From a virus: 64,000 nucleotides of DNA. Below are positions 13,061 to 59,657 of this stretch, one piece after another (the stretch's first letter is position 1; each line of letters starts with the position of its first letter). The stretch is taken from IMG/VR virus record IMGVR_UViG_3300008516_000159. One strand, 5' to 3'. Below the pieces are notes generated by a model, which was not told the DNA's origin, did not search any database, and saw only the letters and a list, made by a program, of their open reading frames with translations. The position numbers were made by a program, and so were the translations under genes.

Positions 13061-13942
13061 TTAAATCCTGAAATGATTATACTTCGTTAAAACCAACTCT
13101 CCCTCATCCTTATTTCTTTTTCCTTCTGTTTCCTCAAACATATAGCCAGGAAAAATAACCTTTTTCATTTTATATGAGAGAAGAATGGCTTCATCACTAT
13201 TCTTAAAAGGATAGTCCGTTGCCACTATGGAGTAATACAGCTTACTGGTGTCCGTGCGACCGTCAAAAATCTCTTCGACATTGTGACACGAATGAGCGAT
13301 AGCCAGTGTCATGCTGTCTTTGACTATTACAACCGCAAAACTGTTGGCATTTTTTACTACCGCCCACGCCAGCTTGTCGTCAAACTCCAGGTCTTCCTTT
13401 ATACGGCTGGTTGTCTGTTCAACAACACCCCATCGAGTCATTGTAAGATCAGTAAAAACAGGCTGCCTAATGTTAGTGGTATATACTTTCAGCAGGGGGA
13501 GGTCTTTTGTGATAAGCCTCATGGCATAGTCTTCTATTGTTGGCGCAATAATAGATTCAGGAACATTTCCGGTTTCAATAAAATAAGTAATCAATCCATT
13601 TCTGAATTCATTGTTGGTAGCGAGGCACTTGCCAGTCAAGCTCAAATTTTGAGTTTCAAGAAGCTCCTGTACAGTATCCACGTGGTCTCTTTTCACACAC
13701 ACAAAAGCGGCAACAGGATTTCCTAACTCGGCCACAGCAAAGGTCTGTTCCTCACCGAACTCGCTGACGATATTGGAGGCCACGTGCATGTTAATTATAT
13801 CATGATAGTTCAGCTTAGGGCCGAATCTGTGCCGTGGAGCGTCGGTGTCGTTTTCCACGTAAAGAGCGGCTGCTTGATGTTCATTCTCGCCATGTTTCAA
13901 TTCAAAGGCTTTTTCGTAATTGAGAGTTAGCTTTTTGTTCAT
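13061..13942 (-). CDS. degenerate PurH AICAR-transformylase-domain homolog (probable pseudoenzyme)
   Basis: LKHGENEHQAAALY matches LRYGENPHQxAAFY; LNYHDI..MHVAS.IV.EF; LAWAVVK; VATDYPF; VIFPG. The catalytic KH of VKHxNPCG appears as EL (AELGNPVA). Confidence 0.7.
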   Translation of the reverse strand: MNKKLTLNYEKAFELKHGENEHQAAALYVENDTDAPRHRFGPKLNYHDIINMHVASNIVSEFGEEQTFAVAELGNPVAAFVCVKRDHVDTVQELLETQNLSLTGKCLATNNEFRNGLITYFIETGNVPESIIAPTIEDYAMRLITKDLPLLKVYTTNIRQPVFTDLTMTRWGVVEQTTSRIKEDLEFDDKLAWAVVKNANSFAVVIVKDSMTLAIAHSCHNVEEIFDGRTDTSKLYYSIVATDYPFKNSDEAILLSYKMKKVIFPGYMFEETEGKRNKDEGELVLTKYNHFRI

Positions 13943-15606: not shown

Positions 15607-16605
15607 TTACACATTAAGAAATTTTGCTTCTTCGCGGGTGATGTAATCTTCGTGCTCTTCTTCCTCACGATAGTTGGTAACTCTATCAATGGCTTTACCC
15701 TTGTATTTATCGATCACCTTGTCGATACTCAAACCTGCCGCAACAGTTATATAGAGAATAGTATCATAGTTGTTTCGAATAATACCCGAAAGGATCCTCG
15801 CACTCTTCGCTCTGCCACTGATCTTTTTGGTTACTTCTACAAGTTTGTTGGCTTCGGCATCAACGTCTGCGTTCTTAATCTTACTGTAGACTGAACGGGC
15901 GATTAAAACGTTCTTTGCTTCGTTGATTCTGCCGTAGCTGATAAACTTGACAGCTTCTTCTTCCAGATTTGAGAAAGAAACATTAACGAAGCCGCCGGCA
16001 TAAGAAATCGAAGTTGTTTCAAGATGGTCGATTGACAGCGGGCTATATAAGCTTGGATCATTAAGCTCGTCGTTCATATTGACGACGCACTTGACGCTGC
16101 CGATGATGTGTTCATTGATATTGGAGAAATCGCGTTCCGCAAACTTGCCAATATCTTCGTTGGAGAACAGCATAATCGAGCACTTGTCCTGAAACTCATT
16201 GAACCTCTGCATCGCTCTGACAGCATTAGCTGTGGCTGGAATCGACTCTGAGAGGAATGGGAGAATGCCGACAAAAAGGATCTTGTTTCTTTGGCGCAAC
16301 AGAGGCATTAGAACCGACTTAATCGAAGAACTGCCGCTGCCACCTCCAAGGGCCGCAAATATAACAACCTTTGTCCTTACGTAGGGCTCAAGTACTTTTT
16401 CTACTTCTTCTTTGTTCTCGCCCCAAATCTTAAGGCCTAGATTATAATTACGACCGGATCCGTCTCTGGAAAGTTCGATGTTGTTGGTTAGTCCAACTTC
16501 ATCTTCGAGTGCGGTGTTAAATGTGATAATTTCATCATCTTTGCTCTTAAAGAGCTCGGCGAGTCGCGAGCCGGTTTGCCCGCAACCCAATAATAAGCGC
16601 TTCAT
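15607..16605 (-). CDS. tubulin/FtsZ-family GTPase (PhuZ/TubZ-like)
   Basis: LLGCGQTGSRL (G1 loop), AALGGGSGSS signature, GILPF..E...A..NA, acidic C-terminal tail. Confidence 0.85.
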   Translation of the reverse strand: MKRLLLGCGQTGSRLAELFKSKDDEIITFNTALEDEVGLTNNIELSRDGSGRNYNLGLKIWGENKEEVEKVLEPYVRTKVVIFAALGGGSGSSSIKSVLMPLLRQRNKILFVGILPFLSESIPATANAVRAMQRFNEFQDKCSIMLFSNEDIGKFAERDFSNINEHIIGSVKCVVNMNDELNDPSLYSPLSIDHLETTSISYAGGFVNVSFSNLEEEAVKFISYGRINEAKNVLIARSVYSKIKNADVDAEANKLVEVTKKISGRAKSARILSGIIRNNYDTILYITVAAGLSIDKVIDKYKGKAIDRVTNYREEEEHEDYITREEAKFLNV

Positions 16606-16634: not shown

Positions 16635-16642
16635 TATATATG
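16635..16642 (-). promoter_or_regulatory. CATATATA putative promoter upstream of the tubulin gene
   Basis: Recurrent motif, 30 nt before the ATG, with an AAGGAG SD in between. Confidence 0.55.
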
Positions 16643-17559: not shown

Positions 17560-18348
17560 TTATCCGGCAGGTATTTCATAAACACTGTCCAGGGTGGACA
17601 AACTTGTTCTAACTTTCAAATCAGGATAAAGATAATATCTTCCCTCTTCGCTTACATAAGAAATGATATCAAGAAAGCCTATATTATATTTGGCAGTGTT
17701 GTATATCTCAAGGTGTTGTTCTTTCCGGACTAACTTACCGGCCGCCGATATGTTTTTATAGAAATCTGTGTTATTAAACTGATCTTGCTCGGTCGTCAAG
17801 AAAGTAATGTTTTTACTGTTGGTTGTGTCCATGAATTCGTCAAAATCTTCCAACACACTTTCGTTCGGATTGCCCAGTTTTGAATTGAAAACAGGAACAT
17901 ACAGAATGGTTGTCAATTTCGAGTTTGCATATCGAATAAGACCCGAAGGTATTTCCATCTGTCGAACTAAACCTGCCAGACTATTGTATTCGTCCGGTCT
18001 GAACGATAAAAGATTGATTTTCAGTTCCGTCAGCCCTATGGAAATCAGTTGATCGAGTAGGGCTTCTTCGAGCAACAGGCCGTTTGTGAGTAAAGAAAAA
18101 TGCTGAAAATAAGGCTGGCCAAGTTTTAACATTTCCAATAAACGAAAAGCATTCATCAAAGGCTCACCGCCGATAAAGGAAACGGCCGAAATGCCGCGGT
18201 TCTTGAAGTGTTCATATATAGTGGCTATTTGCCTTTTGTTGAAAAGATCGTCGGTTTGTGGCAAATGCGTATCAATGTGACAATACTGGCAATTTAAGTT
18301 AGTGTAGCAGCTTGTTATTATGTTTAACTTCTTATTTTTTAAATCCAT
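17560..18348 (-). CDS. radical SAM protein with atypical CX5CX2C motif
   Basis: SCYTNLNCQYCH, FIGGEPL, LLTNGLLL. No SPASM domain. Confidence 0.8.
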   Translation of the reverse strand: MDLKNKKLNIITSCYTNLNCQYCHIDTHLPQTDDLFNKRQIATIYEHFKNRGISAVSFIGGEPLMNAFRLLEMLKLGQPYFQHFSLLTNGLLLEEALLDQLISIGLTELKINLLSFRPDEYNSLAGLVRQMEIPSGLIRYANSKLTTILYVPVFNSKLGNPNESVLEDFDEFMDTTNSKNITFLTTEQDQFNNTDFYKNISAAGKLVRKEQHLEIYNTAKYNIGFLDIISYVSEEGRYYLYPDLKVRTSLSTLDSVYEIPAG

Positions 18349-21135: not shown

Positions 21136-22110
21136 TTAATCTTCTTTCTCATTCAAGCTCTTTTTGAGAGTACGGATGAGATACTCATTAGCCCAGTTGA
21201 AATCAGGCTTTTTTCGGATTTCGGTTTGAGCGTAAGCCAGTTCAACTTCTTTGTTGTATTCGTCATACATCCGCATAAGTTCGTCAAATGAAACCTCTTT
21301 GTTGCGGATACGGATAATGTCTTCACGAGCCTTGCCTACAATTGGAAAGTCAATTCGGCCTTTCTCAAGTAGCTGACGACCTTCATTGAGCAGGCGAATT
21401 AGATGATAAGCAAACTTAACATCGTAACTGTCGCGACCTTCACCGGTGAAGCCCAGCTCTTTGACTCTCCAACCATACATCCCATATTCACTCTTAATCC
21501 TGTTATATATATGCTCCAGAGGCATGCCCTTGTGAAAGTGCTCCGTATTGCCCTTTTCGCCTTTGTAGAACTTGAGAATATGATTAAGTTCTGAGGCTTC
21601 GAGTTCGGTAATCGGACGATCTTCAACAATCTCTTTCAGATATTTCAGACCAACACCAAGAGAACGAAACCTCTCGCGTTTCACAACCAGATGTTTGCGC
21701 TGGGAATAAGCATACCCAGTAAAAGTGTGGAACACACGGGTGCTGATAATCTTATCATAGTTGTCCATGATTTCCTTGAACTCAGGTTCAAGAAGCAGGA
21801 TGTCCTCGGGTTTAGCGAAAAGCACCTCAACTATATTGGGGTTATTCTGCATCACCAACTTGAGAAACTTTTTGATATTATAAGCTTTGTCATCAACGTC
21901 GCTCTTGACGTTCCGATGTTGAGCACTGGATTTTTTAGTAGATCTGTCGATTTCATCGACGTTCTTGAGGCCAAGGATATACTCCTCATCGGGAATGAAA
22001 ACACCCAGATAGTCTTCATCGGATTCAGGAGTATTGAGACCGTAGAGGTGCGAACCTATTCTGGAACGGAATATGTACTTGTGAACTTTTACTTGATGTT
22101 CTTGAGGCAT
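21136..22110 (-). CDS. Pol-beta-superfamily nucleotidyltransferase (RlaP/YcgL-like)
   Basis: GSHLYGLNTPESDEDYLGVF, NPNIVEVLF, YDVKFAYHLIRLL. Confidence 0.85.
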   Translation of the reverse strand: MPQEHQVKVHKYIFRSRIGSHLYGLNTPESDEDYLGVFIPDEEYILGLKNVDEIDRSTKKSSAQHRNVKSDVDDKAYNIKKFLKLVMQNNPNIVEVLFAKPEDILLLEPEFKEIMDNYDKIISTRVFHTFTGYAYSQRKHLVVKRERFRSLGVGLKYLKEIVEDRPITELEASELNHILKFYKGEKGNTEHFHKGMPLEHIYNRIKSEYGMYGWRVKELGFTGEGRDSYDVKFAYHLIRLLNEGRQLLEKGRIDFPIVGKAREDIIRIRNKEVSFDELMRMYDEYNKEVELAYAQTEIRKKPDFNWANEYLIRTLKKSLNEKED

Positions 22111-23522: not shown

Positions 23523-23530
23523 TATATATG
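23523..23530 (-). promoter_or_regulatory. CATATATA putative promoter upstream of SSB
   Basis: Recurrent motif, 33 nt before the ATG. Confidence 0.55.
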
Positions 23531-24168
23531 CCTCATCGGGTTTCTTTTTACGATAGGCGTTCCGGAAGTTGCTCACTGCCGACATGATTCTCTTATCCTC
23601 TGAAGGTTTTTTCAGAACAGGCTCGGCTTTGGCTCTTTCCTCTGTTTTCTTTTTTAAAAACGGAAGTTTCATTTTTTCCTCTCTTGAATATTCTGTTGAT
23701 TTTTTATCAATAAACCGTTTTACTGTAATAAACGGAAGTCCATCGAATAACGCTTCAATAGCGTTTAATTTTATTCTATTTATTGTCTTCATGGACCTCA
23801 AGTACTCCGTCTCTCATCAATCTCTTCATTTCGTGGGTAAACCCATCGACGTCGATTGTTTCACCGGATTTGATTACGTGATTCTTACCCTTAAACCGCA
23901 GAGTAAGTGTGTTTTTGGTGTTGTTAATGAGCGTTATTTTTTCATACTCAAGCAGCGTTTTAGCCACTTTGGTTAGGATCTTCCTTTTGGCCATTCCTTA
24001 GAATCTCCTTGGCTAATAACATTTTCTTCTGGCTCTCTGTTAGCGGGTTGCCGCCCATACTAATAAATACCGGTTTACCATCTGGTCCATGGAACCAACT
24101 AAAAGGAACTTCAATCTGTCTAGCTGTATTCTCCACAATCTTCACCACTCTCTCCTAGAATGTCATTA

Positions 24169-24501
24169 TTATATATGCTTCTTCCACCCCTTTATCAGTT
24201 GATGAAATGGTGCCCATGTTGCCTCGGGTAATATGTCTTTTATCGCCCTCGCTCCTACCGGATTTATCGAATGAACCACTATTTGAGCGTGAATGTCTTT
24301 CTCCGCTATAACCTTGGCCAGTTCACACCCTGTTACTGGTGTGCCCAAATCGTGATCTATAAAAATGATATCGTATTCGTGCTCATCCAACGAAGCAATA
24401 GCCTTCTTTGCGCTGTAGTATATGTGCAGCTCATGACCAGGTAGATACTCTTTGAATGCTTCTTGTCTCTGAGGTGAATCTTCTAATATGAGCACTCTCA
24501 T
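24169..24501 (-). CDS. stand-alone receiver domain, cyclic-phosphate-processing (cREC-like) type
   Basis: VLILED, IFIDHDLG, TG.ELA, VVHSINPVG. Confidence 0.75.
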   Translation of the reverse strand: MRVLILEDSPQRQEAFKEYLPGHELHIYYSAKKAIASLDEHEYDIIFIDHDLGTPVTGCELAKVIAEKDIHAQIVVHSINPVGARAIKDILPEATWAPFHQLIKGWKKHI

Positions 24502-25359
24502 GGTTTCACTCGTGTAACAGTATTTTAGCTTTGTCTTTCTTTCTTTTTGCTCTATGTAGCTCTATTTCGCGCTTGATTTTCTCACGCCAATTCGGTATAA
24601 ACTCATCACACAACGCGTCGACTATTTCCTGTCTTTTGTTTCTGAGCAAATCCAGACAATCACGACAGGCCACGGTACTCTGTGACGAAAAATCGCGATT
24701 TTCGTGGTGTTGCTGGAAAGACTCAAAGACGCTTTGGATTATGTCATCCACGAAGTTTTGTTTATCTTTTTTTCCCAAAAAGCTTTCTGTGGCGGCTTCC
24801 AATTGGTCTATATAATCAGGACTTAATCTGTCTCCGCAAAAATCACAGTAGTATCTAATCATTCCCGGGCCTCAGCAATAATTTCGCATAATATTTTTTA
24901 TACTTCTCTTTAGTGACTTTCCGGTAACCGCGGCCATTGAGCGTCTTTTTTAGATATATATCATGCACATCTCTCGCGAAAGTGCTATGTTTATCAACGC
25001 CTTGAACAAACCACCATGCGGCTTCCTGGGCCGAATCTGAACATTCCCAGTAATCTGTTATGTTAACAAGTGTGTCTTTGTGGATCCAAATAGAATCCAG
25101 TTGTATGTTATTCACCGCCGCTACCAATCCAACACCAGCTTGATTTTAGCCAGTTCTTTTTTCTCCGGTTTTTTACATTTTACTAGTATCCGTTTCATGC
25201 TCCAGGGAGAAATACCGTTTATCGTGCGAGATCGATAGGGATACCTTGAGTTGGTTAGATTATTTCTGCACGCTACATATACATTCCAAAGATCTAAATC
25301 GTCGGATTCTATTTTCAAGACCGCCCCTCCGTCAACGAATATGTCTCCATCGATCAGTT

Positions 25360-27468
25360 TCATATCTCAGGCACCATTATTTTGTTTATAATGAGATCAC
25401 CATCCCGCATCTTGCCCATTTTGAAAACCAAAACTTTATTTTTGATCAGGTTACGAGCACTTTCGTTAAATTGATGCGCAAACAACGGATAACGCCTTAC
25501 TCCGTTCTCATCCCTAATCGATACAAAAGCCATCATGTTGCCGTTTCTATCGCGCTTTCTTGTTACATCAGTTATAATGCCGATCAAAGCCCTACTATCA
25601 AGCATGCTTTTCAGCTGTGCTATCTCATCGGCCTTTTCTTCATACAGTATCATTGATATATCCAATGTCAATAAGTCCTGTAATAACTCCAGCTTTTCCT
25701 GCTTGTTCCAATCTGTTCCTTCCCTGGTCTTGATGAACTGTTCAAATGGAACTTTTGCGCCCTTCTTGCGCCACTCATCATAGTTAGTATACAGCGTCCT
25801 GCGATTGCCGTAAAGCTTATCAAAAGCGCCCGCTTGTATCAAGCTGTCAAGAACCCTCTTGTTTACTTTCGTGCCGGTTTTGTGCTCCTTCAATTTGGTG
25901 AAAAAGTCAGTAATACTCTCATGAGGCGCGTGCTCGGAAATCCATTTAGCGGGAACCACGCCGCAGTTCTTGACATGGCTCAATCCATAAATGACGGTCT
26001 TGTCGTCTATAATGCTAAAGTGCGTTTTACTTTTGTTTACGTCCGGATATAATACTTCTATACCAAGCTGCTTACATTCAGCAGTCAGCCTATCCACAGG
26101 GGTTTTGTCAGAGTTCAACGAGGCGCACATAAACTCAACAGGATAATGGACCTTGAGCCACGCGGTGTAATACGCAATGGTCGCATACGATAAAGAGTGG
26201 CTGCGGTTGAACTGGTAACCGGTCTGTTTGATAAGATATTCCCACAGCAGCCTCGTCTCTTTCTGATTTCTGTTTTTCTTTTGACAGCCCTCGAAGAACT
26301 CCTGCTCCCACTTCTTTTTACCCTTGGTGTCATTCTTGAACTTGGAGTGCCATTTTTCCATATAGCGCCTGAGTGAGTCCGCGCGGCCCAAACTAATTCC
26401 GGATGCCATGTGCGCAATGTTGATGGTTTGTTCCTGGAACACCAATAGACCCAAAGTAGGTTTTAATACCTCTTCTAGAACAGGATGCGCATACTTGATC
26501 TCCTCTTCGCCGTGTCTGCGTTTGATGTAGTTGTTTATAATAGGAATAGAACCTGGCCTGAATAAAGCATTCATGATTACAATATCCTCAAATATTTTAG
26601 GTTTCAGCTTTTGTAAATAACCTTTCATCGATGGACTTTCAAACTGAAACACAGAGGTGGTCAGGCCTTTGCCAAATAATTTATAAACATCTGGAACCTC
26701 GAAGTTTATATTATGTATGTCTATTTCTTTTCCATGCCTCTCCTTTATAAAGTCCAGCGTATCATGAATAATTTTGAGAGTAGACAGTCCGAGTATGTCA
26801 AGCTTCAACAGTTTCATTTCTGCTATTGACTCACCATCAAACTCAGTCAAAAGCATGTCATCATCCCTGTTGTACTGACATGGAATATATTTTTGGACAG
26901 CCTTGTCCGCTATGATGATGGCGGCTGCGTGTTTGCCATAGTTACGCATCTGTCCTAACAGTTTCTCAGCAAACTTGAAGATTTCAGGATACTGGTGATA
27001 AGCGCTGCTTTCGTTCCAGTTAGTTTCGTCTATGTTCTTGGATATAGCAATAGCTTTCTGGGCGGGTATACCATGTATTCTCGCGGAATCCTGAAAAGCT
27101 GACTTGATGGAATAAGTAATGACGTTACACACCTGAGCGACGTTCGTCTGACCAAATCTTCGCTTGATGTAATCAATGACATCACCTCTGCGGGCATCTT
27201 CAAAATCAATGTCTATATCAGGAGCTTTGCCAGATATCGTCAATTTTTCAGGTTCGTCATTTATGGGATCATGATGAATGTATCCCAACAAATACCAAAT
27301 CAGGATATTGGGATGCGGGTCGGTTCCGTTATCAACATCTTTCAAAAGGTTGGTGTGAGTTATGATCTCATATTTCTTGAACTCTTTTAGTTCATAATCC
27401 AATCGCTGGCGATGCTTCTCGTCGTTTATGCCTTTTTCTTTCAACAGGCGGTATAGTTTTTCTTTCAT
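25360..27468 (-). CDS. dnaE: DNA polymerase III alpha, C-terminal part (catalytic palm, fingers, HhH, OB)
   Basis: APDIDIDF, GKHAAAIII, KLDILGL, VFQFES, GYQFNRSH, OB fold. No PHP domain and no GRGS. Confidence 0.95.
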   Translation of the reverse strand: MKEKLYRLLKEKGINDEKHRQRLDYELKEFKKYEIITHTNLLKDVDNGTDPHPNILIWYLLGYIHHDPINDEPEKLTISGKAPDIDIDFEDARRGDVIDYIKRRFGQTNVAQVCNVITYSIKSAFQDSARIHGIPAQKAIAISKNIDETNWNESSAYHQYPEIFKFAEKLLGQMRNYGKHAAAIIIADKAVQKYIPCQYNRDDDMLLTEFDGESIAEMKLLKLDILGLSTLKIIHDTLDFIKERHGKEIDIHNINFEVPDVYKLFGKGLTTSVFQFESPSMKGYLQKLKPKIFEDIVIMNALFRPGSIPIINNYIKRRHGEEEIKYAHPVLEEVLKPTLGLLVFQEQTINIAHMASGISLGRADSLRRYMEKWHSKFKNDTKGKKKWEQEFFEGCQKKNRNQKETRLLWEYLIKQTGYQFNRSHSLSYATIAYYTAWLKVHYPVEFMCASLNSDKTPVDRLTAECKQLGIEVLYPDVNKSKTHFSIIDDKTVIYGLSHVKNCGVVPAKWISEHAPHESITDFFTKLKEHKTGTKVNKRVLDSLIQAGAFDKLYGNRRTLYTNYDEWRKKGAKVPFEQFIKTREGTDWNKQEKLELLQDLLTLDISMILYEEKADEIAQLKSMLDSRALIGIITDVTRKRDRNGNMMAFVSIRDENGVRRYPLFAHQFNESARNLIKNKVLVFKMGKMRDGDLIINKIMVPEI

Positions 27469-27483
27469 ATTGTTATGTATGTC

Positions 27484-29490
27484 TTATGATTTAGTAACGT
27501 CATGTAATACCTTTGCGAGAGTCTCGAGCGTAAACGGTTTCTGTATAACATCCTTGAAACCATAATCTTTGTAGTTGCTCATAGCATTGGATGTAGAATA
27601 GCCGCTTGAAACAATAGCCTTGACCTGCTTGTCTATTTCCAGGAGCCTCTTTATGGTCTCAATACCATCCATACCCCCAGGCATAGTAAGATCTATAACA
27701 ACGGCATCAAAGTGCTTATCTATCATGGAACCCTTGTAGGTCTCTAATGCCGCCTCACCGCACGACACCACGGTAACAGTGTAGCCCAAGTCTTCTATTA
27801 GATCCTTGGCTATCTCTCTAACCGGCGCCTGATCATCTACAAAGAGCACGTTGCCTCGGCCATTTAGGTGTGCATCCAAATCTTCTTCTTTTATTTCTTC
27901 TAAAGTCGTGGGTAAATACAAAAAGAATGTGGAGCCTTTGCCTAACTCGGAATCAACCCACACGCAGCCTTCGTGATTTTTGATAACAGAATAGGCGGTG
28001 GCCAATCCAAGCCCGCTTCCTGCGTGTTTAGTTGTGAAATAGGGATCAAATATTTTGTTGAGGTGTTCCTTTGGTATGCCTATGCCTTTGTCAGCAATCG
28101 TAACTTCCAAATATGCACCCGGCTTTAGATGAGCATCGCAAGGTACGCCCATGGGCGCCTTCACCTCTCTCGCCGCTAATTTTATGACGCCGCCTGTGGG
28201 CATGGATTGCATAGCGTTTATCAATATGTTTTGTATAACCTGAGATATTTGACCAGGATCAATGTGAGCGTTAGGTATGTCTTCTGGTATGTTGTATTCT
28301 ATTTTAGAGTTACAACCACTAGTGGTAAAAGTGGTTGTCTCCATTATAATTTCCTTTATGGATACTGTTCGACGAACTGGCAGACCTCCACTGGAGAATG
28401 TCAACAACTGCTGCGTCAGACTTTTAGCGCGCTTGCAGGCCTTTAGTGCCTGTACAAGTCTGTTTATTACTTCATTTTCCAGTTTTAGATCTGGCTCGTC
28501 GAGAACCTGGTCAGATTTTACATGTCTGCGGCTATGCATCAAAGCCAGTTCGACATTGCCACTGATAGCCGTCAGTATGTTATTGAAATCATGGGCAATA
28601 CCACCGGCCATTACGCCAACTGCTTCCAGTTTTTGGGATTTAGATAACTCCAACTCGGTCTTTCTCTGGAGTGTAATATCTCTAAACACCGCGACAGCAC
28701 CGACAATATCGCCTTCTTTATTTTTGATTGGCGCTGCTGTATTATCGATAAGCCGGCTTTTGCCTCGTTTAGATATAAGAACTACATCTTTTTTAAGTTC
28801 AATAATCTTACCTGTCTCTAGAGCCTTTTGTAACGGGTTAGGGGCCATTGCGTTGGTCTTTTCATCAAACAAATGAATGATGGCATCAAAAGGCTTTCCT
28901 ATCACTTCCTTCTGTTTCCAACCAAGTATGTGTTCCGCCATGCGGTTTAGTATAGTTATTTCGCCTTTGGCACCTACAGCGACAACACCATCGCTGATGC
29001 TCTTCAATGCAATATTTAATCGTTCGGTTTCTTCGGCCAAGGCTCGCTGCGCCTTTACCCTTTCGGTAATGTTGCGATGCTGCACTATAGCATTGACAAC
29101 TTTGTTCTTAATTATAATAGGCGTGATAGTTACATCTAACGCGAGGGCGCTGTGCATCGTAAGGTGTGCGTGTTTTATCTCTGCAGGAGTATAATCTAAC
29201 ATAAAATGCACAGGTTGTTTTTCATAGAAAACCTTATCTATGAGAGGAATCAAATTCTCTTTGTGAAACTCTTCATCCTTGAATAGATTATATACTCCAA
29301 CTACTTGTTCATCCGTGATATCAAACAGATCGCGGTTGACCTGGTTCTGCATAATCATTGTGCCCTTTTCGTCCGACAACCACATACTGTTTGGGCTGTT
29401 TTGTATGATTTTGCCGCAGAACTTATTTATATCTTCTTTTGTGATTTTGTTATTAGTATTTAGTAACAGGTCGTTTTTTCTTTTTCTCAT
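27484..29490 (-). CDS. hybrid sensor histidine kinase PAS-PAS-HisKA-HATPase-REC
   Basis: GIAHDFNNIL (H-box), NILINAMQ, DKGIGI, FDPYFTTK, GSGLGL, VDDQ...IDLTMPG...KPF. Confidence 0.95.
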   Translation of the reverse strand: MRKRKNDLLLNTNNKITKEDINKFCGKIIQNSPNSMWLSDEKGTMIMQNQVNRDLFDITDEQVVGVYNLFKDEEFHKENLIPLIDKVFYEKQPVHFMLDYTPAEIKHAHLTMHSALALDVTITPIIIKNKVVNAIVQHRNITERVKAQRALAEETERLNIALKSISDGVVAVGAKGEITILNRMAEHILGWKQKEVIGKPFDAIIHLFDEKTNAMAPNPLQKALETGKIIELKKDVVLISKRGKSRLIDNTAAPIKNKEGDIVGAVAVFRDITLQRKTELELSKSQKLEAVGVMAGGIAHDFNNILTAISGNVELALMHSRRHVKSDQVLDEPDLKLENEVINRLVQALKACKRAKSLTQQLLTFSSGGLPVRRTVSIKEIIMETTTFTTSGCNSKIEYNIPEDIPNAHIDPGQISQVIQNILINAMQSMPTGGVIKLAAREVKAPMGVPCDAHLKPGAYLEVTIADKGIGIPKEHLNKIFDPYFTTKHAGSGLGLATAYSVIKNHEGCVWVDSELGKGSTFFLYLPTTLEEIKEEDLDAHLNGRGNVLFVDDQAPVREIAKDLIEDLGYTVTVVSCGEAALETYKGSMIDKHFDAVVIDLTMPGGMDGIETIKRLLEIDKQVKAIVSSGYSTSNAMSNYKDYGFKDVIQKPFTLETLAKVLHDVTKS

Positions 29491-29984
29491 GATATTTCAG
29501 AACACGGCACACCATTCTCCATTAGAAATGTTGAGCCGCTTATATCTCTGTCATACGGCTTGTTGAAATATACTTCTTTCACCCCAGCTTGTAATATTAG
29601 TTTTGAGCATGGCATGCATGGGGAATAAGAAATATACAGAACAGAACCTTGAGTTCGCACGCCGTTTTTGGCGGCATATATTAGAGCGTTTGCTTCGGCA
29701 TGAAGCTCGTTCCGTTCGGAAAATATTCTATGTTCTTCTCTGAACAATTCGGAGTTTAGATAATCTTCGAAGGATTTGAATTCATCATAATAATTTAATT
29801 TGTAAACTAGCTTAAAATGTTCTTCGCAATGCTTCTGACCTTCAGGAACACCATTGTATCCCATGGATATTATACGGTTATCCCTAACCAAAAGACCACC
29901 GACTTTAATACGGGCACATGTGCTTCGACTTGCTACAATCTCGGTAATCTCTGAAAATACCTTTTTCCAATCCGGTCTGCTCAT
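29487..29984 (-). CDS. dCMP deaminase (ComEB family)
   Basis: RSTC.R.KVG, GYNG, HAEANAL, SPCMPC. Start trimmed to MSRPDW; ATGA overlap with the kinase gene. Confidence 0.95.
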   Translation of the reverse strand: MSRPDWKKVFSEITEIVASRSTCARIKVGGLLVRDNRIISMGYNGVPEGQKHCEEHFKLVYKLNYYDEFKSFEDYLNSELFREEHRIFSERNELHAEANALIYAAKNGVRTQGSVLYISYSPCMPCSKLILQAGVKEVYFNKPYDRDISGSTFLMENGVPCSEIS

Positions 29985-31962
29985 GTTATTTTCCTTTGCT
30001 TTTGGTGATTTCGACTTTAAACTTCCGACAGTATACAACCGTAAACTCAGACAGTTGTCCACATTCTTTTTTATGCCGGCATTGCCTACACTTTTTTGCT
30101 AACAGCTCATTTGGCGTTTCAGTTCGCTTTTTGCCCATCTGATAAATCCTCCGAAATCAACATCATGGTCGTGTGGAAAATGCGTATCCTCAGAATGCTC
30201 AGCCCAATCTATAGCACATTTTAAATCGTAATCACCATAATGAATGTCTTTTTTCAAACCCCAATTTTCACCATTACAGTAATCTCTATAAGCCATTAAC
30301 ATGACTCTACAAATCGCCATTTTCTGCTTCCTACACTATAACTCTTTACATTAGATATTGAATTACTCCGTCGACTTGAAATGCGCAGGAATTAATATAC
30401 GGACTGAGATAAACTGGAGCTTTATTAAAGTTACCTACCTGGTGTACGCCAATACTTGACGCAACTTTAATTGGCTCGAATTCATCGAACTCCACCATAG
30501 CCTTATAGCCCTCTAAACTAAGAATGATCCAATTCATTTTTAAAAACACCTTCGAAAGAGAATCTCCTATTACATTTCTTACAGAGACAAGAAATCGTGA
30601 GTCTATTCTGATCTACTCCTGTAAAATATGCAACTAAAGTTGTCTCCTCAGACTGTTCTATATCTTTACCATCACAATCTACATAAGCACACTCTTCTAT
30701 TCTGATCATTTACTTTCCGCCTTCTATTCAGGTTCGATTACGACTTGTTCCTCGTGCTTAAACTCAAAAGCAAAGCCACACGTTACGCATTCTGCCCTGT
30801 AACCGGCCGTGAAACAGCCATCATCGGCCAGATAGAACTCATAATCCTCACGCAATGATTCATCAAGCTTTATCGGCTCTCTTGATTCCAACAACAAGGC
30901 TTCATATGCCTCTGGTGTCAATTTTCCATAGCCAGCTCTTGCTTTTTTTGAAAGATCCTCTGCTTTACTTTCTGCCATCTTAAGACACCTTGGGCATGTT
31001 GTCCAATTATCTGCACTCATTTTTCCTCCTTTAGTTTACGTATACAACGGCGCAACCCATAAAACTCGAGTTTACATTCGCAGCAATAAAACAGGCATTT
31101 TCCTTTGCCCCATTCAACCGCGGTTACTGTGTGTCCTTGGTGCTCGCTGTATCGCGCTATATATTTATATTTCATCTTTTGTTTGTCATGTCAATCCCCA
31201 AGGCCATAAACACACCACCAAAAAAGCATCCACCTATAGACAACCAGAGGGCCAGCATCGAGTGGCCCGTTTCTATAAGAGTTGGATCTTTGAGAAAAAC
31301 CCATAATGATATAAATCCAGACCCGCCAAACACGCCACACAGTAGGCAAAGTGGCATAAATATCATTGCCCAATTAATCTTTTCCATCTCACCTTTCCTT
31401 TAGTTCACTAAAAGAAATGTGCTTTTCTTTTAATGCTTCGAGCCTTATTAAAGCTCTATCTGCCGATTTATTATTGCCTGTCCTGTAAGCTGTGCATAAA
31501 TCCTTATAGATGCTAACTTCTTTTTCGAGTCTTTGGATGCAAATGTGGTGTTCTTCTCTCTCTGATAACCACAATCCTTCTTCAGCGGTCCGTAATTCAT
31601 CGTTCTCCAACTGAAGCTTTTGAATACAAGCTTCTGCCTGCTGCAACGCTCCTTCAAGCGCTTGTGCATCTACGCCCGATAAGGGTTTCCGTTGTTTACA
31701 TGCCGCTCGTATTGTCAATTTGTTCATCTTTTTTTTACCTTCAGAGCTCTTTGGATAACGGGGTCGGGAAATCCTCGCCACGAAGAATCTTCTCCATTGT
31801 CTCGACGATGTTTACGCCAATGTGAAATAACACCTAGGTGAATAGTGTTTCTTCTTCCTTCTACAACTTTTCCACATTCCGAACATGTCCAAGTATCTCT
31901 GCACCTACTTTCTTGCAGTCCCACCTTATATTTCCTTATCTTTTTTCAAGGTCTGCTCCATC

Positions 31963-32343
31963 TTATATTTTGTGCAATTCTTCCGCGGAAGGATCGTTCT
32001 TTTCTGAATAATTTGCAAATATTATATATAGCGCGCTTGCCACTGGATGATTCAGGTGATCATCCGCTTCGTAGTATTTATCCACCATATCGATGAGCCA
32101 ATCAAAAGTTGTGTTCGGGGGAAAGATGATGTTAGATATCTCATCGGCTTCTTCTCGGGTCACATAGTCATTACCGAAAAAGAGAAAAACGGATATTTGT
32201 GCACCGGCTGCGTAACCGGCCAGATACGTTGTTTTCATTTCGAGATCCCATCGTCTCCAATCTGTGCCATCCTCCATGAATGAATCTGCAAATAATGGAC
32301 AAGCAATCAGCATTATCATCAATACAAAAATAATCTTTTTCAT
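31963..32343 (-). CDS. exported protein, Rap1a-like fold (tentative)
   Basis: Signal peptide; TYLAGYAAG...LIDMVDKYY...NHPVASAL. Confidence 0.4.
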   Translation of the reverse strand: MKKIIFVLMIMLIACPLFADSFMEDGTDWRRWDLEMKTTYLAGYAAGAQISVFLFFGNDYVTREEADEISNIIFPPNTTFDWLIDMVDKYYEADDHLNHPVASALYIIFANYSEKNDPSAEELHKI

Positions 32344-32349
32344 AGTGTT

Positions 32350-33570
32350 TTATCCTAAGAATTTTATTGTTTTACCGCCTAATCTTTCTGGATTTAAGAA
32401 GCGCTCAAACTGTAACTTGTGTACAATAGGATCAACATCTGTTATGTTCAGGGCATAGGCTATAAGAGATCCTGCTGCGCTTCCCCTGCCAGGTCCTACA
32501 TAAATATTTTCAGACTTGGCCCAGCCAACTATATCTGCCACTACTAAGAAATAAGAAGAAAATCCTGCGCTATAGATGATCTTGAGTTCATAAGCCAATC
32601 TCATCATGTAGGTGTCATTTCGCAAGCATCTCCTATCCAGACCCTCTACGCACTTTTTGCGGAGTATCTCATCAAGGTCGGCGCCCTCGAACTCTGGAAT
32701 AGGAGGCACGATATAATCATGCTGCTTAATATCAAACACCTCTATTTTATCGGCTATCTTTACGGTCGTATCACACCACCCCTCAATGTCCTTTTTATCG
32801 TAGCCGGTGTTTATGCCTTCTCTGATGATTTCTTCTCTTGAGTGCAAATATATATTGTCTTCGTCGAATTGAAGCCCTTTGTCGTCGCCTACTTTACCGC
32901 CAGTATTGACCAACAGCAGTTTGGCGTGATCGTCTTTCTGATCTGCCGTTATATAGTGGGCATCAGCGGTGATAATGGCTGGAACCTTCAACATTTTCCA
33001 GAACTTGTATAGTTTTATTTCTATGGCTTTTAATCTCTCGGTCTGATGTGGTTGAAACTCTATATAAAAGTCATCGCCAAATACATCAAGATACCAATCT
33101 AGGTTCCTCTTGGCCGCTTTTATATCATTGTTTATCAACATGCTTGTTACATCGTTGGCAAGACAGGCGGTTGTGGCTATTATATTTTTACTGTACGCCT
33201 TCAAGGTCTCTCTATCTATACGCGGTCTTTTATAAAAACCATAACGATGACCAATATATTGCATCTGCATTATGTTACGATAACCTTCGATGTTTTTCGC
33301 CAACAGTACAACATGAAAACGTTTTTCTCCCTTTGGTTTGACTTTCAGATCATCAACCATATAGGCCTCAACACCTATCAACGGTTTGATCTTGTATTTC
33401 TCGGCAAGGTGCCAGAACTCATAAACTCCTGACATTGTTCCATGATCGGTTATAGCTAAGGCAGGCTGCCTTAGTTCTTCTGCTACATACTTAAGGCGTG
33501 CTTTTTTCGTCCCTAGCCCATCGAGTGCACTAGAATCGGTGTGTACGTGAAGATTTACGAAGTTATCCAT
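32350..33570 (-). CDS. dnaE: DNA polymerase III alpha, N-terminal part (PHP domain plus palm start)
   Basis: HVHT, ITDHG, GVEAY, DAHY, GPGRGSAAGSL, FERFLNPER, then ends before PDIDID. Confidence 0.95.
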   Translation of the reverse strand: MDNFVNLHVHTDSSALDGLGTKKARLKYVAEELRQPALAITDHGTMSGVYEFWHLAEKYKIKPLIGVEAYMVDDLKVKPKGEKRFHVVLLAKNIEGYRNIMQMQYIGHRYGFYKRPRIDRETLKAYSKNIIATTACLANDVTSMLINNDIKAAKRNLDWYLDVFGDDFYIEFQPHQTERLKAIEIKLYKFWKMLKVPAIITADAHYITADQKDDHAKLLLVNTGGKVGDDKGLQFDEDNIYLHSREEIIREGINTGYDKKDIEGWCDTTVKIADKIEVFDIKQHDYIVPPIPEFEGADLDEILRKKCVEGLDRRCLRNDTYMMRLAYELKIIYSAGFSSYFLVVADIVGWAKSENIYVGPGRGSAAGSLIAYALNITDVDPIVHKLQFERFLNPERLGGKTIKFLG

Positions 33571-33579
33571 TTAGTATAT

Positions 33580-33987
33580 CTATGTCTTGAGTAAGCTTTT
33601 GACACGACATCTTTCGCACATATTGCGCAACCAGCTATGCTTATAATTTTGTACTGCTACTTTTTTAGTCGAACCGCAAATCTCACACGTTTTTGCGCAT
33701 TGTTTTTGAGCCTCGCTGATCAACTCGATTACCTTTACGTACACATCACCGCACTCATGCACATAAACTCTGAGCTCGGCAAACTTTTCTTTTACCTGCA
33801 CAATCTCAAAATCTTTCGGAGGACGAAGGCTATCTATTTTAAGAATTAGGTCCAAAATAATATCAAACCAGCCGTCGCCGCAAGCAAAACCCTCTCTGTG
33901 ACCCATGCGGCTAACCGATTGATCTTCTTTGTGTTCGAAAAAATGTGGAAACCGATCGAATATTTTTTTCTCTAATTTGTCAGTCAC
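33580..33987 (-). CDS. phage hypothetical protein with C-terminal CxxC-CxxC
   Basis: GDGWFDII, QVKEKFAELRVY, TCEICG...CERC. Confidence 0.7.
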   Translation of the reverse strand: MTDKLEKKIFDRFPHFFEHKEDQSVSRMGHREGFACGDGWFDIILDLILKIDSLRPPKDFEIVQVKEKFAELRVYVHECGDVYVKVIELISEAQKQCAKTCEICGSTKKVAVQNYKHSWLRNMCERCRVKSLLKT

Positions 33988-34089
33988 TTTATCTGACCCC
34001 TGGATTTTATTAAGATAAGAATACCAGACCTAACAGTCCCGGTCATAATTATATATGGCCCAAGCGCACATCAAAACAGGAGGAGTTTA

Positions 34090-34707
34090 ATGAGAAGAAT
34101 ACTGTTTTCACTTTTAGCTTTGTTGTTTTTATTCGGTCTCGGTTCCGGATTGTTCGCTCAGAAAGATGCCTATAGATGGTACGTCCGAACTATTGAGCTT
34201 AAAGTTACATTCTGGGAAGATGACGAGCAAAAGACGGAATATCGTGAAGAATATCTCTTATATTTTGGCAACGAAAAGACGTTAGAAGTAGAAGCTCAAC
34301 TCGCAAGATCTAGAATGGGTTTTGGAGCCATGGTGTTCCATCCTATACCAGAAGTGACAGAAAGCATGAGCTTCCAGGCCCCCGAAAGATGGTACGTGCA
34401 ACCATACGACCATAGTAAGCATGATTCTCCTAAATTATATCCATTGTTTGAGGATCGCGTATGGAACAACATGCCGCAGAACATCAAGCTCATCATAATG
34501 GCCCTGGATTACAAAGATGACGATCTTATTCTTATTCATATGAGAGGCAACACTGGCAGCATTAGTATTTGTTACCACCCTAAGTTTGACGAAGACAAGG
34601 AGTTTTATGGGGCAAAATTGGAGCAGCTTTTGGATTATCTAAACAACCTGGAAGATCCTGAGAAAGAAATACCTAATCCAATTTTACCAATTAAGAACAC
34701 AATATAA
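34090..34707 (+). CDS. exported protein
   Basis: Signal peptide MRRILFSLLALLFLFGLGSGLFA; AGGAG SD. Confidence 0.65.
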   Translation: MRRILFSLLALLFLFGLGSGLFAQKDAYRWYVRTIELKVTFWEDDEQKTEYREEYLLYFGNEKTLEVEAQLARSRMGFGAMVFHPIPEVTESMSFQAPERWYVQPYDHSKHDSPKLYPLFEDRVWNNMPQNIKLIIMALDYKDDDLILIHMRGNTGSISICYHPKFDEDKEFYGAKLEQLLDYLNNLEDPEKEIPNPILPIKNTI

Positions 34708-34720
34708 AGATAATTTTGTT

Positions 34721-35344
34721 ATGACTAGAGAAGAGTTTCTGTCCATCGAACATCCATCTATAGAAGAGTACCGCTATTCAGACGTTGTGGTGTACTTTTT
34801 GTGGAATAAACCAAGCAAAAGTAGTATCACCTTGAAAGGCTCAGTATGGATCTACACGGATGGCAACAAAAGCATTGCACTAAAGAACGAAGTATTAAAG
34901 GAGCTTAAAGATCTTGAAGCCGCGGCTTTTTCTATAAGAAAAAAGAATTTAATATTGTTAAACCCCGGTAAAAAATATGTTATAGGTCGACTTTTCGGTG
35001 AAAAGGTGCGACAGGAATAAAATATGAAATCAGCTGACACCATAAGCGATGTCGCAGTCCCGTTTCTTGTTAAAAGCAAAAGCGGTCAAGGCTCTACAAA
35101 AAGCTGGGAATACATATACGTAACAGAGGTCTACGATCGATTAGCCAAGAAAGAAAGTAAAGTCGGGGCTGTTGTGAGACTAATGCGGTTCGGTAGTAAC
35201 GTTGGCGTATTAATAGAAAAGGGTAAAGAAGCTCAATACATGTGGTCACATATATTTTCACCGAGGGCGCAACAGGTTGAGATGAAACGAGGTAAAAAAG
35301 ATCTACTTGTTGACCTTTTCACTTTTCCTGACAGAATGATTTAA
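34721..35344 (+). CDS. two small proteins with the shared C-terminal helix (34721-35020, 35024-35344)
   Basis: End in KKYVIGRLFG and KKDLLVDLFT. Confidence 0.6.
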
Positions 35345-44720: not shown

Positions 44721-45275
44721 ATGAAATGTGTGCGATGCCAGCTAGGACAAAGCAGGGAAGATAATAACTACGAAACAGTTTGGCATGATGGAAGTCCATC
44801 TGCCAAGATTATGATTGTAGGCGAAGCTCCCGGAAAAGAAGAGGCCGAGACAGGCAAGCCTTTTGTTGGCAGAGCGGGCAAGAAGCTTCGTTCAATACTG
44901 AAAGATTTTGTGGACCTCAAGAAAGATGTGTTCATTACCAATACTGTTCTGTGTAGGCCTCCCAATAATCGCAATCCTGAGATCTCCGAACAAGATGCCT
45001 GTTTTCCTCACCTAGAGGCGATGTTCTTTACCGTCAAACCAAGACTAGTAATGACAGTCGGCCGTGTTTCATCGGATTGGCTACTGAGAATAATTCATAA
45101 AGAATATAAGATATACGAAATGAAAGAGGCTACGTGGAATGATCATTGGTTTTTGTGGCTGCCCCTGTATCATCCCTCTTATCTGTTAAGAAAGCCCACC
45201 GCTGTAGAACCATTCGTAGCTTGTTTACAAAGATATAAAGGAATACTGGACAAGCTACGGACCCATGGCAATTAA
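44721..45275 (+). CDS. uracil-DNA glycosylase family 4 (Fe-S)
   Basis: CxxC, VGEAPG, PFVG.AG, N.V.CRPP.NR.P, YHPSY. Confidence 0.95.
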   Translation: MKCVRCQLGQSREDNNYETVWHDGSPSAKIMIVGEAPGKEEAETGKPFVGRAGKKLRSILKDFVDLKKDVFITNTVLCRPPNNRNPEISEQDACFPHLEAMFFTVKPRLVMTVGRVSSDWLLRIIHKEYKIYEMKEATWNDHWFLWLPLYHPSYLLRKPTAVEPFVACLQRYKGILDKLRTHGN

Positions 45276-45975
45276 ATACTACATCAACTTCGCAGACGAG
45301 TTGTTTATTCTCAAAGAGATAAAACTCGGAATAAGCCGCGTTAATGCAGAGGTAGTGTTTGCCACGGCCGATGTTCTATGGGCTCCTAAACTTCCTGACG
45401 GCAGCATTGGCGTATCAACAGACAACTGGCTCGATCTCTTCAAAGAGCCCAATGGTTTGCAAGATAAAAAGGAAATATTATTGGTAGCAATGGGAATATA
45501 AATGAGCCAAACAAAGTATTATATCAACCTTTCAGACGAAGTTATTATCCTCAGAGAGAAAAAACGCGACGAGAAGCATGTGAATACAGACGTATTATTT
45601 ACCACAGCGACGTCGATTAAATTCAACACACTTGATGACGGTAGTTTTAATGTGGGGGCTGGCCATTGGGATCACTCTTTTAGAGAACCTTATGGAATTA
45701 AAGATAAAAAGATTATACTGCGATATGTAGGAATATAAATGAACTCAGCCAGATACTATATCAATTTTTTACCCCGCGACGTTTTAATCGTCAGAAAAAA
45801 GAAACGTACTAAAGAACGCGTATATACGGATTTGTTGTTCACCTTCGGCGGTGATGTTCATGATTATTATATAACCAGCGATTTCACTGTATTAGTCCGG
45901 GACTGGGATCGATTTTTCACAGAGCCCAAGGGTGTTGAAGATAAAAAAGAGATACTACAAGCCATGGGAATATAA
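45265..45975 (+). repeat. three tandem 78-aa paralogs with an exact 237-bp period
   Basis: Starts at 45265, 45502, 45739 (next gene at 45976). Junction GGAATATAAATG repeated three times. Shared YYIN...KK.IL...GI. Confidence 0.9.
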
Positions 45976-46875
45976 ATGGAAAACACAAGGTACATCTGGA
46001 GAGTATTAAACTTTAGTCCGCCAGAAATAATTTTATACAAAGAAACAAAAGACAATAACTTCAAAGTAGTGTATACTGACGATGATAAGTTCTTTCCTGT
46101 AGGCTTTCAGCACTATAGAAAATTCATATTGCCAGTCGCCTTTACATTTTACCTAGAGAATGAAGACAAAAAAAGAATGATACACCTCAAATTTTCAGGC
46201 GAATTGTGGCCACAAAGTTAAATGGAAACTAAACCCGGTGAAATCAGATATCATAAAAAGCTAGGCATCAAAGTAAAGTACTTGGGCACCCTTGACCATG
46301 TTTGGTATGACGTCAGCGTAAAAATGATACCTCCAGCCGTTCATAAAATGTATGATATAACGAAAACGACAGGAGAAATCCCACAGTGGGAATGGCATAA
46401 ACACTGGACCACTGATGATCCAAAACTTTCTTCTGAAGAGATATTGAGGTCGGTAAAGATAATGAAACTTTTATGGCGGTTAGATAAGATCCCCGATAAA
46501 TACTCTGTTTACTACTTACAGAGGCGGACATGAAAATAGAGCCAGGAACAACAGGATATTATGCGTTCACTGGAAATGGAACATTCGAATGGCACGCACT
46601 ATAAAAATTCGGGTATGGTACGAACAAAATAAAGACAGCTCAATCTTTACTGTCGGCGAAAAAGAACAGGACATGCCGAACGAAAACGTATCGATAAAAA
46701 TATTACTATCCAACGAAACTCAAGCTAGCACCATGGTCGAAAGGGATGTAGCCTGGGATTACGGCTGGTATCCTAAACTTTTAGAAAAAGATAGCCACTA
46801 TACCAGTAATATTAAAAAGATAATCATAAGTAAATCAATATTTAAACCAGAACATAAACTACATGGAGATTTATA

Positions 46876-47604: not shown

Positions 47605-48755
47605 TGAACAAAATCAGCCAATACTTACGTAACAAAGAACTTACGCCGTGTGACCTGAAAACTCTGATACATTACATTGAAATAATTAGAGATATCGTCA
47701 ATTTGCCAGATGATATAGATCAGCTATCTGAAATTGCCGGGCTTGTAGCAGAAGAGCCCGGTGATTTGCTTGATGAAGCTGCTAGGAGAGTTGTAATTGA
47801 TGTATTAGATGCTTTAGATCAGGTAGATATTGATAGTGCTATTGCGGAATGTGACAACGATGACAACATTAGTCTTAATAATGGCGACTGGGATTAATAA
47901 CCGCGGCGCTCAATCTTTACGTCCCTCAAAGGCTTGCCGAACAAACATCTTTTTGGCTTTCAAAGGCGTATGGCTAAAGTTGGATAAACGATCTTGATCA
48001 TAATTTCCAGGTAATATCAACCCCTCCTTGTGGCTTGTGTATATGTTTTTAACAACTCTATAAGTGACAAGAGTTTCTATGCCGCTCCCAATCATTACAG
48101 ATATCTTGCCTTTGTCTATCACGACATAAAGCACGTTCTGCATGTTCTCAGCCTCGATATAGGCCGCAAGCACTCTGTAAATTATATCACCTCTTTTAAA
48201 TGGTTTCATGTTTGTTCGCCTTCTATATTGTGCCGAAACGCTCGAAGTATTGCTCCTCTTTTTGCTTTTCTTAAAGTAGAATATACAGTTTGCGTCGGAG
48301 CCTCGTCATAGTCGCCTACTTTTAAGGCCTCCACACCGCTGAGTTTGCATAGCATACTCTTGATGATAGTAAAACCTACTACATCCTGATGGACTTCTGG
48401 GTCGTCTATTCTCACTTTCTCGATCGCGATACCGGTTACAGAAAACTTGGGATGAAAGCTGGCAAATGTTCTGTATGCAACATCACCCTTTTTCATTCTG
48501 AGTACCACCAAAACAATCGACTTATGATAACGAGTTTGACTTCGATTAAGATCTTATAAAGATTATCCGTGTGAGCTTTTGAAAAATCTCCGGGTCCTAA
48601 AGCAAAGCCTTTTGCTTTGGGAGAGGCATACAACGAATCTTTTATACGTAGAGATGCCAACTCTATGCCTTCGGGGCTGTTTAATAGTTCAGCTCTTGAT
48701 ACCTCCAGCATAGACGGCGAAGACGCACTTATTAAATAAACTAAATCTCCTTGTC

Positions 48756-56863: not shown

Positions 56864-56935
56864 AGCCCCTACTCGGATTCGAACCGAGATAAGATGGTTT
56901 TAGAAACCACCGCCTAACCATTCGGCCATAGGGAC
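56864..56935 (-). tRNA. amber suppressor tRNA (anticodon CUA), Cys-like body, U73
   Basis: GTCCCTA/TAGGGGC acceptor, GTGGT-TTCTAAA-ACCAT anticodon arm, CTCGG-TTCGAAT-CCGAG T-arm. No encoded CCA. Confidence 0.9.
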
Positions 56936-59585: not shown

Positions 59586-59657
59586 TATCCCCGGTAGGAA
59601 TCGAACCTACAATCCAGGTTTAGGAAACCCGCGTTTTTTCCATTAGACTACGGGGAC
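59586..59657 (-). tRNA. tRNA-Arg(CCU)
   Basis: CGGGT-TTCCTAA-ACCTG anticodon arm; GTAGG-TTCGATT-CCTAC T-arm. Confidence 0.9.

Follow-up and report, generated by a model that had tools for sequence, protein, structure and literature searches.

The viral sequence IMGVR_UViG_3300008516_000159 of the IMG/VR database, a metagenome assembly of 64,000 nucleotides with marine sediment as its source habitat (this whole stretch is called the window below), carries the gene for the replicative DNA polymerase DnaE as two separate genes, dnaE-N and dnaE-C. On alignment to known DnaE proteins the two products hold complementary active-site residues, and for this reason the best reading is that they are subunits of one enzyme, assembling non-covalently around a single composite active site. 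We consider this arrangement probable.

Gene layout and position of the cut

Both genes are located on the same strand, with dnaE-N upstream of dnaE-C:

32350-33570, minus strand: dnaE-N, 406 amino acids (aa), PHP domain and first palm segment, TAA stop
25360-27468, minus strand: dnaE-C, 702 aa, head segment, catalytic palm strands, thumb, fingers, HhH domain and OB fold, TGA stop

The distance between them is 4881 bp, in line with the approximately 4.9 kb of other genes (a kinase, a dCMP deaminase and small open reading frames, ORFs) that an earlier note on this DNA, made from the sequence alone, had placed between the collinear halves. In Pfam searches, dnaE-N matched the PHP domain (PF02811, E 3e-39) and positions 2-98 of the 260 positions of PF07733. 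The match to PF07733 was resumed by dnaE-C at positions 100-260, followed by the fingers domain (PF17657, E 4e-52) and HHH_6 (PF14579, E 3e-18). Matches to solved single-chain DnaE by sequence had E-values of 1e-71 to 1e-85. The N-part aligned with residues 5-398 of E. coli DnaE and 3-412 of M. tuberculosis DnaE1, and the C-part, from its own residue 82, with residues 399-901 of the E. coli protein. When aligned to known DnaE in this way, the halves proved complementary and collinear, with an exact cut at E. coli 398/399, after FERFLNPER and before the PDxDxD strand, 2 residues ahead of the first catalytic Asp. At the end of dnaE-N, intact GPGRGSAAGS and FERFLNPER motifs are followed by LGGKTIKFLG and the TAA stop. 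Pfam and structure-sequence alignments thus agree with the earlier description of an N-part that has an intact PHP domain, GRGSAAGS and FERFLNPER and ends before PDIDID, and the PDIDID and KLDILG motifs claimed for the C-part were seen as P83-D84-I-D86-I-D88-F and K222-L-D224-ILG.

Distribution of domains and catalytic residues

The following domains and motifs could be located in the two proteins:

33046-33552, minus strand: PHP domain core, dnaE-N residues 7-175 by Pfam
32383-32667, minus strand: N-palm segment, residues 302-396, with the RLAYELK helix, the IYVG strand, the GS motif and FERFLNPER
32467-32496, minus strand: GPGRGSAAGS nucleotide-binding loop, residues 359-368
32353-32382, minus strand: conserved C-terminal tail of dnaE-N, LGGKxxKFL(E/G), residues 397-406, all of it in the predicted interface
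27223-27468, minus strand: head of dnaE-C, residues 1-82, by profile comparison a conserved helical paralogue of the N-palm segment
27202-27222, minus strand: PDIDIDF strand, with catalytic D84 and D86 (E. coli D401 and D403)
26788-26805, minus strand: KLDILG, with the third catalytic Asp, D224 (E. coli D555)
26275-26781, minus strand: fingers domain, PF17657, residues 230-398
25792-26064, minus strand: HhH (clamp-binding) domain, PF14579, residues 469-559
25363-25599, minus strand: C-terminal OB fold, residues 624-702, structural Z of 8-9 to the OB folds of SSB, PriB and RecO

All nine metal ligands of the PHP domain are kept in dnaE-N (H8, H10, D17, H43, E68, H86, C136, D203 and H205); they line up with those of M. 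tuberculosis DnaE1 and are invariant or nearly so among 81 sequences. The OB region showed a weak match by sequence to Taq 1045-1104. The Pol-beta-like palm is complete but spread over two proteins, with R362-G363-S364 and R390/R396 in the N-part and D84, D86 and D224 in the C-part. All features by which a DnaE-type polymerase is recognized were therefore found (the PHP domain with its nine ligands, the palm motifs, fingers, HhH and OB fold), except that the catalytic core lies in two ORFs instead of on one polypeptide, a split kept in about ten lineages.

The head of dnaE-C is a conserved copy of the N-palm segment

No Pfam model matched the head, and BLASTP of the N-part against the C-part gave no significant pair, so that profiles were required. 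BLASTP against the full-length DnaE of Moorella phage MTATph1 passed through the head in collinear register. With hhalign, a profile of 12 head sequences matched the tails of the N-parts with a score of 38.5 (P 1.1e-6, probability 91%) and the same segment of 101 canonical DnaE proteins with a score of 31.7 (P 2.9e-5); 200 column-shuffled head alignments, used as control, gave a mean of 11.2, a standard deviation of 2.05 and a maximum of 17. The alignment of head and N-palm segment is collinear, pairing RLxYELK with RLxYELK and ILIWYLLGYxxxDPI with SLIAYALGITxVDPI, and its only gap, of 11 residues, falls exactly over VGPGRGSAAGS. The stretch in place of FERFLNPER has no arginines, and in every member the strand and the GS loop are missing as well. 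As judged from these comparisons, the head is a paralogous copy of the N-palm segment without strand, GS loop and arginines, which agrees with the earlier statement that GRGS and the FER..ER arginines are lacking.

The same segment had been described as a decayed, dead duplicate. The origin as a copy of the end of the N-part was upheld by the hhalign score, which exceeded those of all shuffles; the decay was not. Mean pairwise identity within the clade is 59% for the head, 60% for the PHP domain, 50% for the OB end, 76% for the N-palm segment, which is the most conserved part of the N gene, and 77% for the N tail. Because the head is conserved across the clade as much as the PHP domain, it is not decaying. 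ILIWYLL, DP, E74 and GK are invariant or nearly so. On this pattern of conservation the head is a structural paralogue kept by selection rather than a dead relic. The tail of dnaE-N, LGGKxxKFLE, was also considered as a degenerate copy of the DxD strand and rejected, as hhalign gave no support and the alignment ended at G398.

Recurrence of the split and the variable gap

A survey for the same split point in other phages, suggested by the earlier note, found it in about ten lineages at 60-96% identity and in independent assemblies, with N upstream of C on the same strand wherever context was available. A large protein database contained nine close relatives of the C-part (60-76% identity), none of the nine with a PHP domain, and six relatives of the N-part (405-409 aa), all with the same end tail. 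The head-profile search revealed a second, more distant head-bearing clade, represented by P0243 (739 aa) and its relatives P0244 and P0245. Outside these groups the same cut was not found, as other proteins of about 400 aa ending near NPER were contig-end or frameshift fragments continuing into PDxD, and a scan of viral_contigs with the C-part gave no relatives.

The distance between the halves differs between relatives:

L003, L005 and L008: gap of about 0.2 kb with one ORF of 57-66 aa
L007: the same small ORF directly ahead of the C gene; the contig begins just upstream of the C gene and the N gene was not identified
P0004 contigs: gap of 0.7 kb with two ORFs
L006: gap of 1.4 kb with three ORFs
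L002 (189-kb contig): gap of 2.4 kb with deaminase and kinase
Window: gap of 4.9 kb with kinase, deaminase and about 10 small ORFs

Two genes in the gap of the window have counterparts in L002, where the deaminase and kinase pair is located at L002:7607-9987:

27484-29490, minus strand: PAS hybrid histidine kinase gene, 46% identity to the L002 counterpart
29487-30062, minus strand: dCMP/cytidine deaminase gene, 55% identity to the L002 counterpart

These are the only gap genes common to both, and for the approximately 10 small ORFs of the window gap no Pfam or PHROG match was found. Judged from the sequences compared, the gap is a variable insertion site and not a conserved element. The 57-66 aa ORF of the short gaps is located at L003:9785-10000, L005:1204-1383, L007:258-470 and L008:1223-1426, and no homologue of it was found in the gap of the window, in L002 or in L006. 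In three of five lineages an ORF follows dnaE-N in the same frame, 1-2 codons beyond the stop (window 31963-32349, minus strand; L006:8609-9070; L008:1220-1426), which is probably chance; the one in the window encodes a 126-aa protein with a signal-peptide-like start. A cREC_REC receiver gene (24169-24501) is situated just downstream of dnaE-C.

The recurrence also bears on the question whether the split gene could be a decaying remnant, with replication performed by another phage polymerase or by that of the host. Both ORFs are intact in about ten lineages down to 60% identity, with no frameshifts, all catalytic residues are retained, and the halves lie in a replication module that also encodes DnaB, a Toprim primase, gp32 and a sigma factor. 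The genome beyond the window may hold another polymerase, and a family B polymerase is present in jumbo phages whose Pol III alpha is of the minimal split kind (PMC7824862); an accessory role beside such an enzyme would still require an active DnaE. A remnant is very unlikely.

Structure predictions and assembly of the subunits

The C-part alone, modelled from an 87-row alignment, gave a confident and compact fold with a predicted local distance difference test score (pLDDT) of 88. This model matched solved DnaE structures with a structural Z of 23-28; against 2HNH, model residues 10-572 corresponded to chain residues 313-910 (Z 25.9, root-mean-square deviation 7.8 A, 514 residues aligned), and the head superposed on the position of the N-palm segment of solved DnaE. 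When the C-part was modelled by AlphaFold2 from a clade-only alignment of 10 rows, which is too shallow for the outcome to be interpreted, the head helices were confident and the palm sheet (76-119 and 172-225) had a pLDDT below 50.

For the complex of N residues 1-406 and C residues 1-590, the interface score ipSAE was 0.85, 0.85 and 0.86 in three runs, and 0.26 for the best control. This mark was reached by 58 of 80 solved complexes and by 2 of 110 mismatched pairs. Contact agreement between the runs was at least 95%, and the partner pLDDT was 87. The contacts of lowest error place N strand 356-359 beside the DxD strand of the C-part (88-90) and N helix 346-354 on C helix 93-104, and in the model these contacts rebuild the canonical palm in trans. 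The predicted interface also includes residues 26-58 of the head and 384-406 of the N tail. Modelling of the pair against the C-part alone, proposed in the earlier note, thus gave a pair that passes its controls and a C-part with the head in the place of the N segment. Together with the conservation in about ten lineages, the complex model favors the non-covalent assembly of two polypeptides put forward there.

In the mechanism that we infer, the two DnaE subunits would be translated separately and then assembled non-covalently. The PHP proofreading nuclease, probably active, would come from the N subunit, together with the GS loop, the arginines holding the incoming deoxynucleoside triphosphate and the strand with which the Pol-beta-like palm begins; the metal-binding Asp triad, the thumb, the fingers, the clamp-binding HhH domain and the OB fold would come from the C subunit. 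In the free C subunit the head would most likely shield the open surface of the palm and, in the complex, form part of the subunit interface. As for origin, it appears likely that a partial duplication spanned the palm segment and that the gene was then broken inside the duplicated overlap; other genes may afterwards have inserted into the gap, widening it from 0.2 to 4.9 kb.

A more specific role of the head can be envisaged, in which it acts as an intramolecular placeholder that fills the palm of the free C subunit, keeping it soluble but catalytically silent, until the N segment displaces it. Displacement of the head by the N segment is consistent with the two models taken together, in that the place taken by the head in the C-part alone is given to the N strand and helix in the complex model, and we regard the placeholder as conceivable though rather doubtful. 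If it were true, polymerase activity would be gated by assembly, and a strand-swap switch would have arisen from duplication and then fission of an active site.

The confident and compact model of the C-part alone, with the head in the canonical palm position, could also be taken to mean that the two genes are independent: the C-part would then be a self-sufficient PHP-less polymerase with the head replacing the palm segment, and the N-part a stand-alone PHP nuclease or phosphoesterase. The halves are indeed separate genes, up to 4.9 kb apart. Such a polymerase would have to work with a head from which the strand, the GS loop and both arginines are absent in every member, and conservation of the N-palm at 76% would be pointless for a free nuclease. 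The genes always co-occur and in order, an intein sits in the GS motif of the N gene of relatives, and the complex model passes its controls, so that we hold independence of the two genes to be unlikely.

Several points weigh against assembly of the two subunits into one polymerase. Two-subunit assembly rests on conservation and on the complex model. The passing of the complex model may reflect likeness to solved single-chain DnaE, since the alignments contained full-length DnaE rows; single-chain DnaE was included both in the alignment for the C-part alone and in that for the complex. A search of 1.84 billion representatives with the head-profile hidden Markov model yielded four proteins, each with a head, and no canonical DnaE; it adds no independent support, and homology of the head rests on profile-profile comparison and position. 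Finally, a second polymerase may exist in the genome outside the window.

Search for inteins, introns and recoding

Reconstitution of a single chain was considered in the form of a split intein, a split intein with a short N-part, a trans-spliced or large intron, or recoding by which the halves are read as one. Inteins are common in the dnaE genes of this clade, and the phage carries a suppressor tRNA with a CTA anticodon (amber suppressor type, called tRNA-Pyl by ARAGORN; window 56864-56935, minus strand). No intein domain was found by Pfam in either window protein, and the same approach detects inteins in relatives. After the palm, the N tail is 10 residues long and starts with Leu, not with Cys, Ser or Ala; the head, predicted to be helical and homologous to the palm, lacks a conserved Asn-Cys/Ser/Thr pair ahead of PD. 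By the Leu-first tail and the helical head without an Asn-nucleophile junction, an atypical split intein with a short N-part could be ruled out. Rfam gave no match over 24000-35000 at E up to 1, a result that covers described families only. No homing endonuclease gene was found between the halves, where the kinase and the deaminase are accompanied by small ORFs that matched neither Pfam nor PHROG; the gap is filled by real genes and differs between relatives. The stop of the N gene is TAA in the window and TAA, TAG or TGA across relatives, and because of this variation the CTA-anticodon tRNA is irrelevant here. Rejoining of the halves is hence extremely unlikely, and the absence of an intein or intron at the junction, as reported in the earlier note, holds in Pfam, in Rfam and for the junction residues.

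The inteins of relatives are inserted between GRG and SAAGS of the N gene (L003 and L005), between FNR and SHS of the C gene (four relatives) and between PDID and C (P0241); the intein-related coordinates are L003:8144-9784 and L005:2-1207 for the N gene and L002:10001-12640, L006:10001-12937 and L008:1386-4043 for the C gene. The FNR/SHS site is presumably three residues from the cyanobacterial split-intein site. The presence of inteins at catalytic motifs in relatives indicates that both genes are translated and under strong functional constraint.

ARAGORN also detected a phage-borne tmRNA with the tag ANETLALAA (window 49946-50297, minus strand), and six further tRNAs are located at window 59586-63941.

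Integrity of the assembly

As the window is a metagenome assembly, and the best-matching sample may be its own source, an assembly or sequencing artefact was considered. The N stop is covered by a contig from a second sample, which shows 0 differences. A relative about 93% identical here is represented by contigs of a cold-seep study that bridge the N stop and the stretch from the kinase to the C start, with no insertions or deletions in the dnaE parts. The same architecture is present in JGI, ENA and Logan assemblies from different samples. Apparent joints inside the kinase gene were discarded, as they have short sides and derive from conserved kinase motifs of other organisms. With independent contigs bridging both junctions, the mis-assembly named in the earlier note as a possible objection was not seen, and the probability of an artefact is practically negligible.

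Upstream motifs and transcription

Two putative motifs are situated directly ahead of the halves:

27474-27481, minus strand: CATACATA, putative, one-mismatch variant of CATATATA, 5 nt before the ATG of dnaE-C
33577-33584, minus strand: CATAGATA, putative, one-mismatch variant of CATATATA, 6 nt before the ATG of dnaE-N

Exact CATATATA is strongly enriched in the window, with 22 sites against 2.6 expected, 19 of the 22 on the gene-rich minus strand (e.g. at 23523-23530, 16635-16642 and 34050-34057). It is usually found 11-60 nt upstream of starts that bear a Shine-Dalgarno (SD) sequence, and from this position it looks like a phage promoter-like motif. Neither dnaE-C nor dnaE-N is preceded by an SD. 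An SD core is present ahead of about 42% of the window ORFs, and the enrichment of AAGGAG in upstream regions is 5.8-fold; the missing SD is therefore a real but weak peculiarity.

The earlier note had correctly placed CATACATA 5 nt before the start of an SD-less C-part and had taken it to suggest a leaderless mRNA. This idea was not supported: one-mismatch variants of CATATATA number 118 in the window against about 71 expected, so that about 60% of them are expected by chance, and the copy of CATACATA ahead of dnaE-C cannot be told from background. The relatives are inconsistent, as the C gene of L002 has exact CATATATA 5 nt before its ATG and L003 and L006 do not fit the pattern. Both halves may nevertheless have a short-leader or leaderless start.

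Separate regulation of the halves, also proposed there, was not supported. All genes between the halves are co-directional with both of them on the minus strand and form one array, and scans for sigma-70 promoters and terminators over 24800-34200 gave nothing above shuffles. No exact CATATATA is present between 24177 and 34050, so that both halves may share one transcription unit, and in relatives they are only about 0.2 kb apart.

Relation to known polymerases

The enzyme of the window shares all domains and catalytic residues with single-chain DnaE (E. coli 2HNH/5FKU, T. aquaticus 2HPI/3E0D, M. tuberculosis 5LEW/7PU7). Unlike these, its chain is cut 2 residues before the first catalytic Asp, and its C piece has an extra diverged palm segment.

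The split gp43 of T4-related phages is a non-covalent split family B polymerase. Cryo-EM and activity assays have shown that DNAP-N and DNAP-C of phage PhiKZ form a non-covalent 1:1 family B complex (Basu et al. 2026 preprint, PMC13648687). Both resemble the window enzyme as phage replicative polymerases made of two subunits that assemble without splicing, but their polymerase family and fold are unrelated, and reports on them mention no duplicated segment at the junction.

In cyanobacteria, the halves of a split DnaE with a split intein are rejoined by protein trans-splicing, as are the products of "fractured genes" (Dassa et al. 2009, PMC2677866). The likeness lies in a dnaE divided into two genes and in phage or metagenomic replication genes broken by inserted DNA. 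The cyanobacterial cut, however, lies in the fingers, whereas the cut in the window has neither intein parts nor a homing endonuclease between the halves.

Also among the closest known cases is the minimal Pol III alpha of group 2.2 jumbo phages, which is split into two stand-alone proteins, one NTP-binding (nucleoside triphosphate) and one Mg/DNA-binding (Iyer et al. 2021, Viruses 13:63, PMC7824862). The split pieces are predicted in that study, which is computational only, to reconstitute one enzyme. Compared by the description in the paper, the fold boundary is the same as in the window, between the GS/arginine segment and the DxD strand. The group 2.2 version is minimal in that PHP and the other DnaE domains are missing; its genes lie at a distance from each other, a family B polymerase accompanies it, and no duplicated segment is described. 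The window enzyme, in contrast, is full-size (PHP, fingers, HhH and OB), with collinear halves in a replication module and a conserved paralogous head. No paper on a full-size split DnaE with a duplicated palm segment was found in the literature. A minimal Pol III alpha split at this fold boundary is thus already published.

The split in the window suggests that two polypeptides can share the Pol-beta-like active site of a full-size replicative polymerase, one taking nucleotide binding and proofreading, the other the metals and the binding of DNA. The paralogous segment that was retained would record how the fission may have been tolerated, by duplication and then complementary loss, which is a textbook model rarely seen so clean inside a catalytic core. 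The two proteins offer a testable system for folding and assembly of the DnaE palm and for engineered split family C polymerases, and the gap between them serves as an insertion hotspot for accessory genes in these phages.

Other genes in the window

Additional genes of the window encode a tubulin/FtsZ-like protein (15607-16605), a radical SAM enzyme (17560-18348), an AICARFT/IMPCHase-like protein (13061-13942), an RlaP nucleotidyltransferase (21136-22110) and an RNA ligase (61175-61843), all on the minus strand. The first four are present in the same order in L002 and L004; among the loci of relatives that were compared, none showed the RNA ligase. Tandem runs of small ORFs are located at 45265-46221 (plus strand; 78-81 aa) and 48206-49923 (minus strand; 88-99 aa), with near-identical upstream sequences, and look like paralogous miniprotein arrays.

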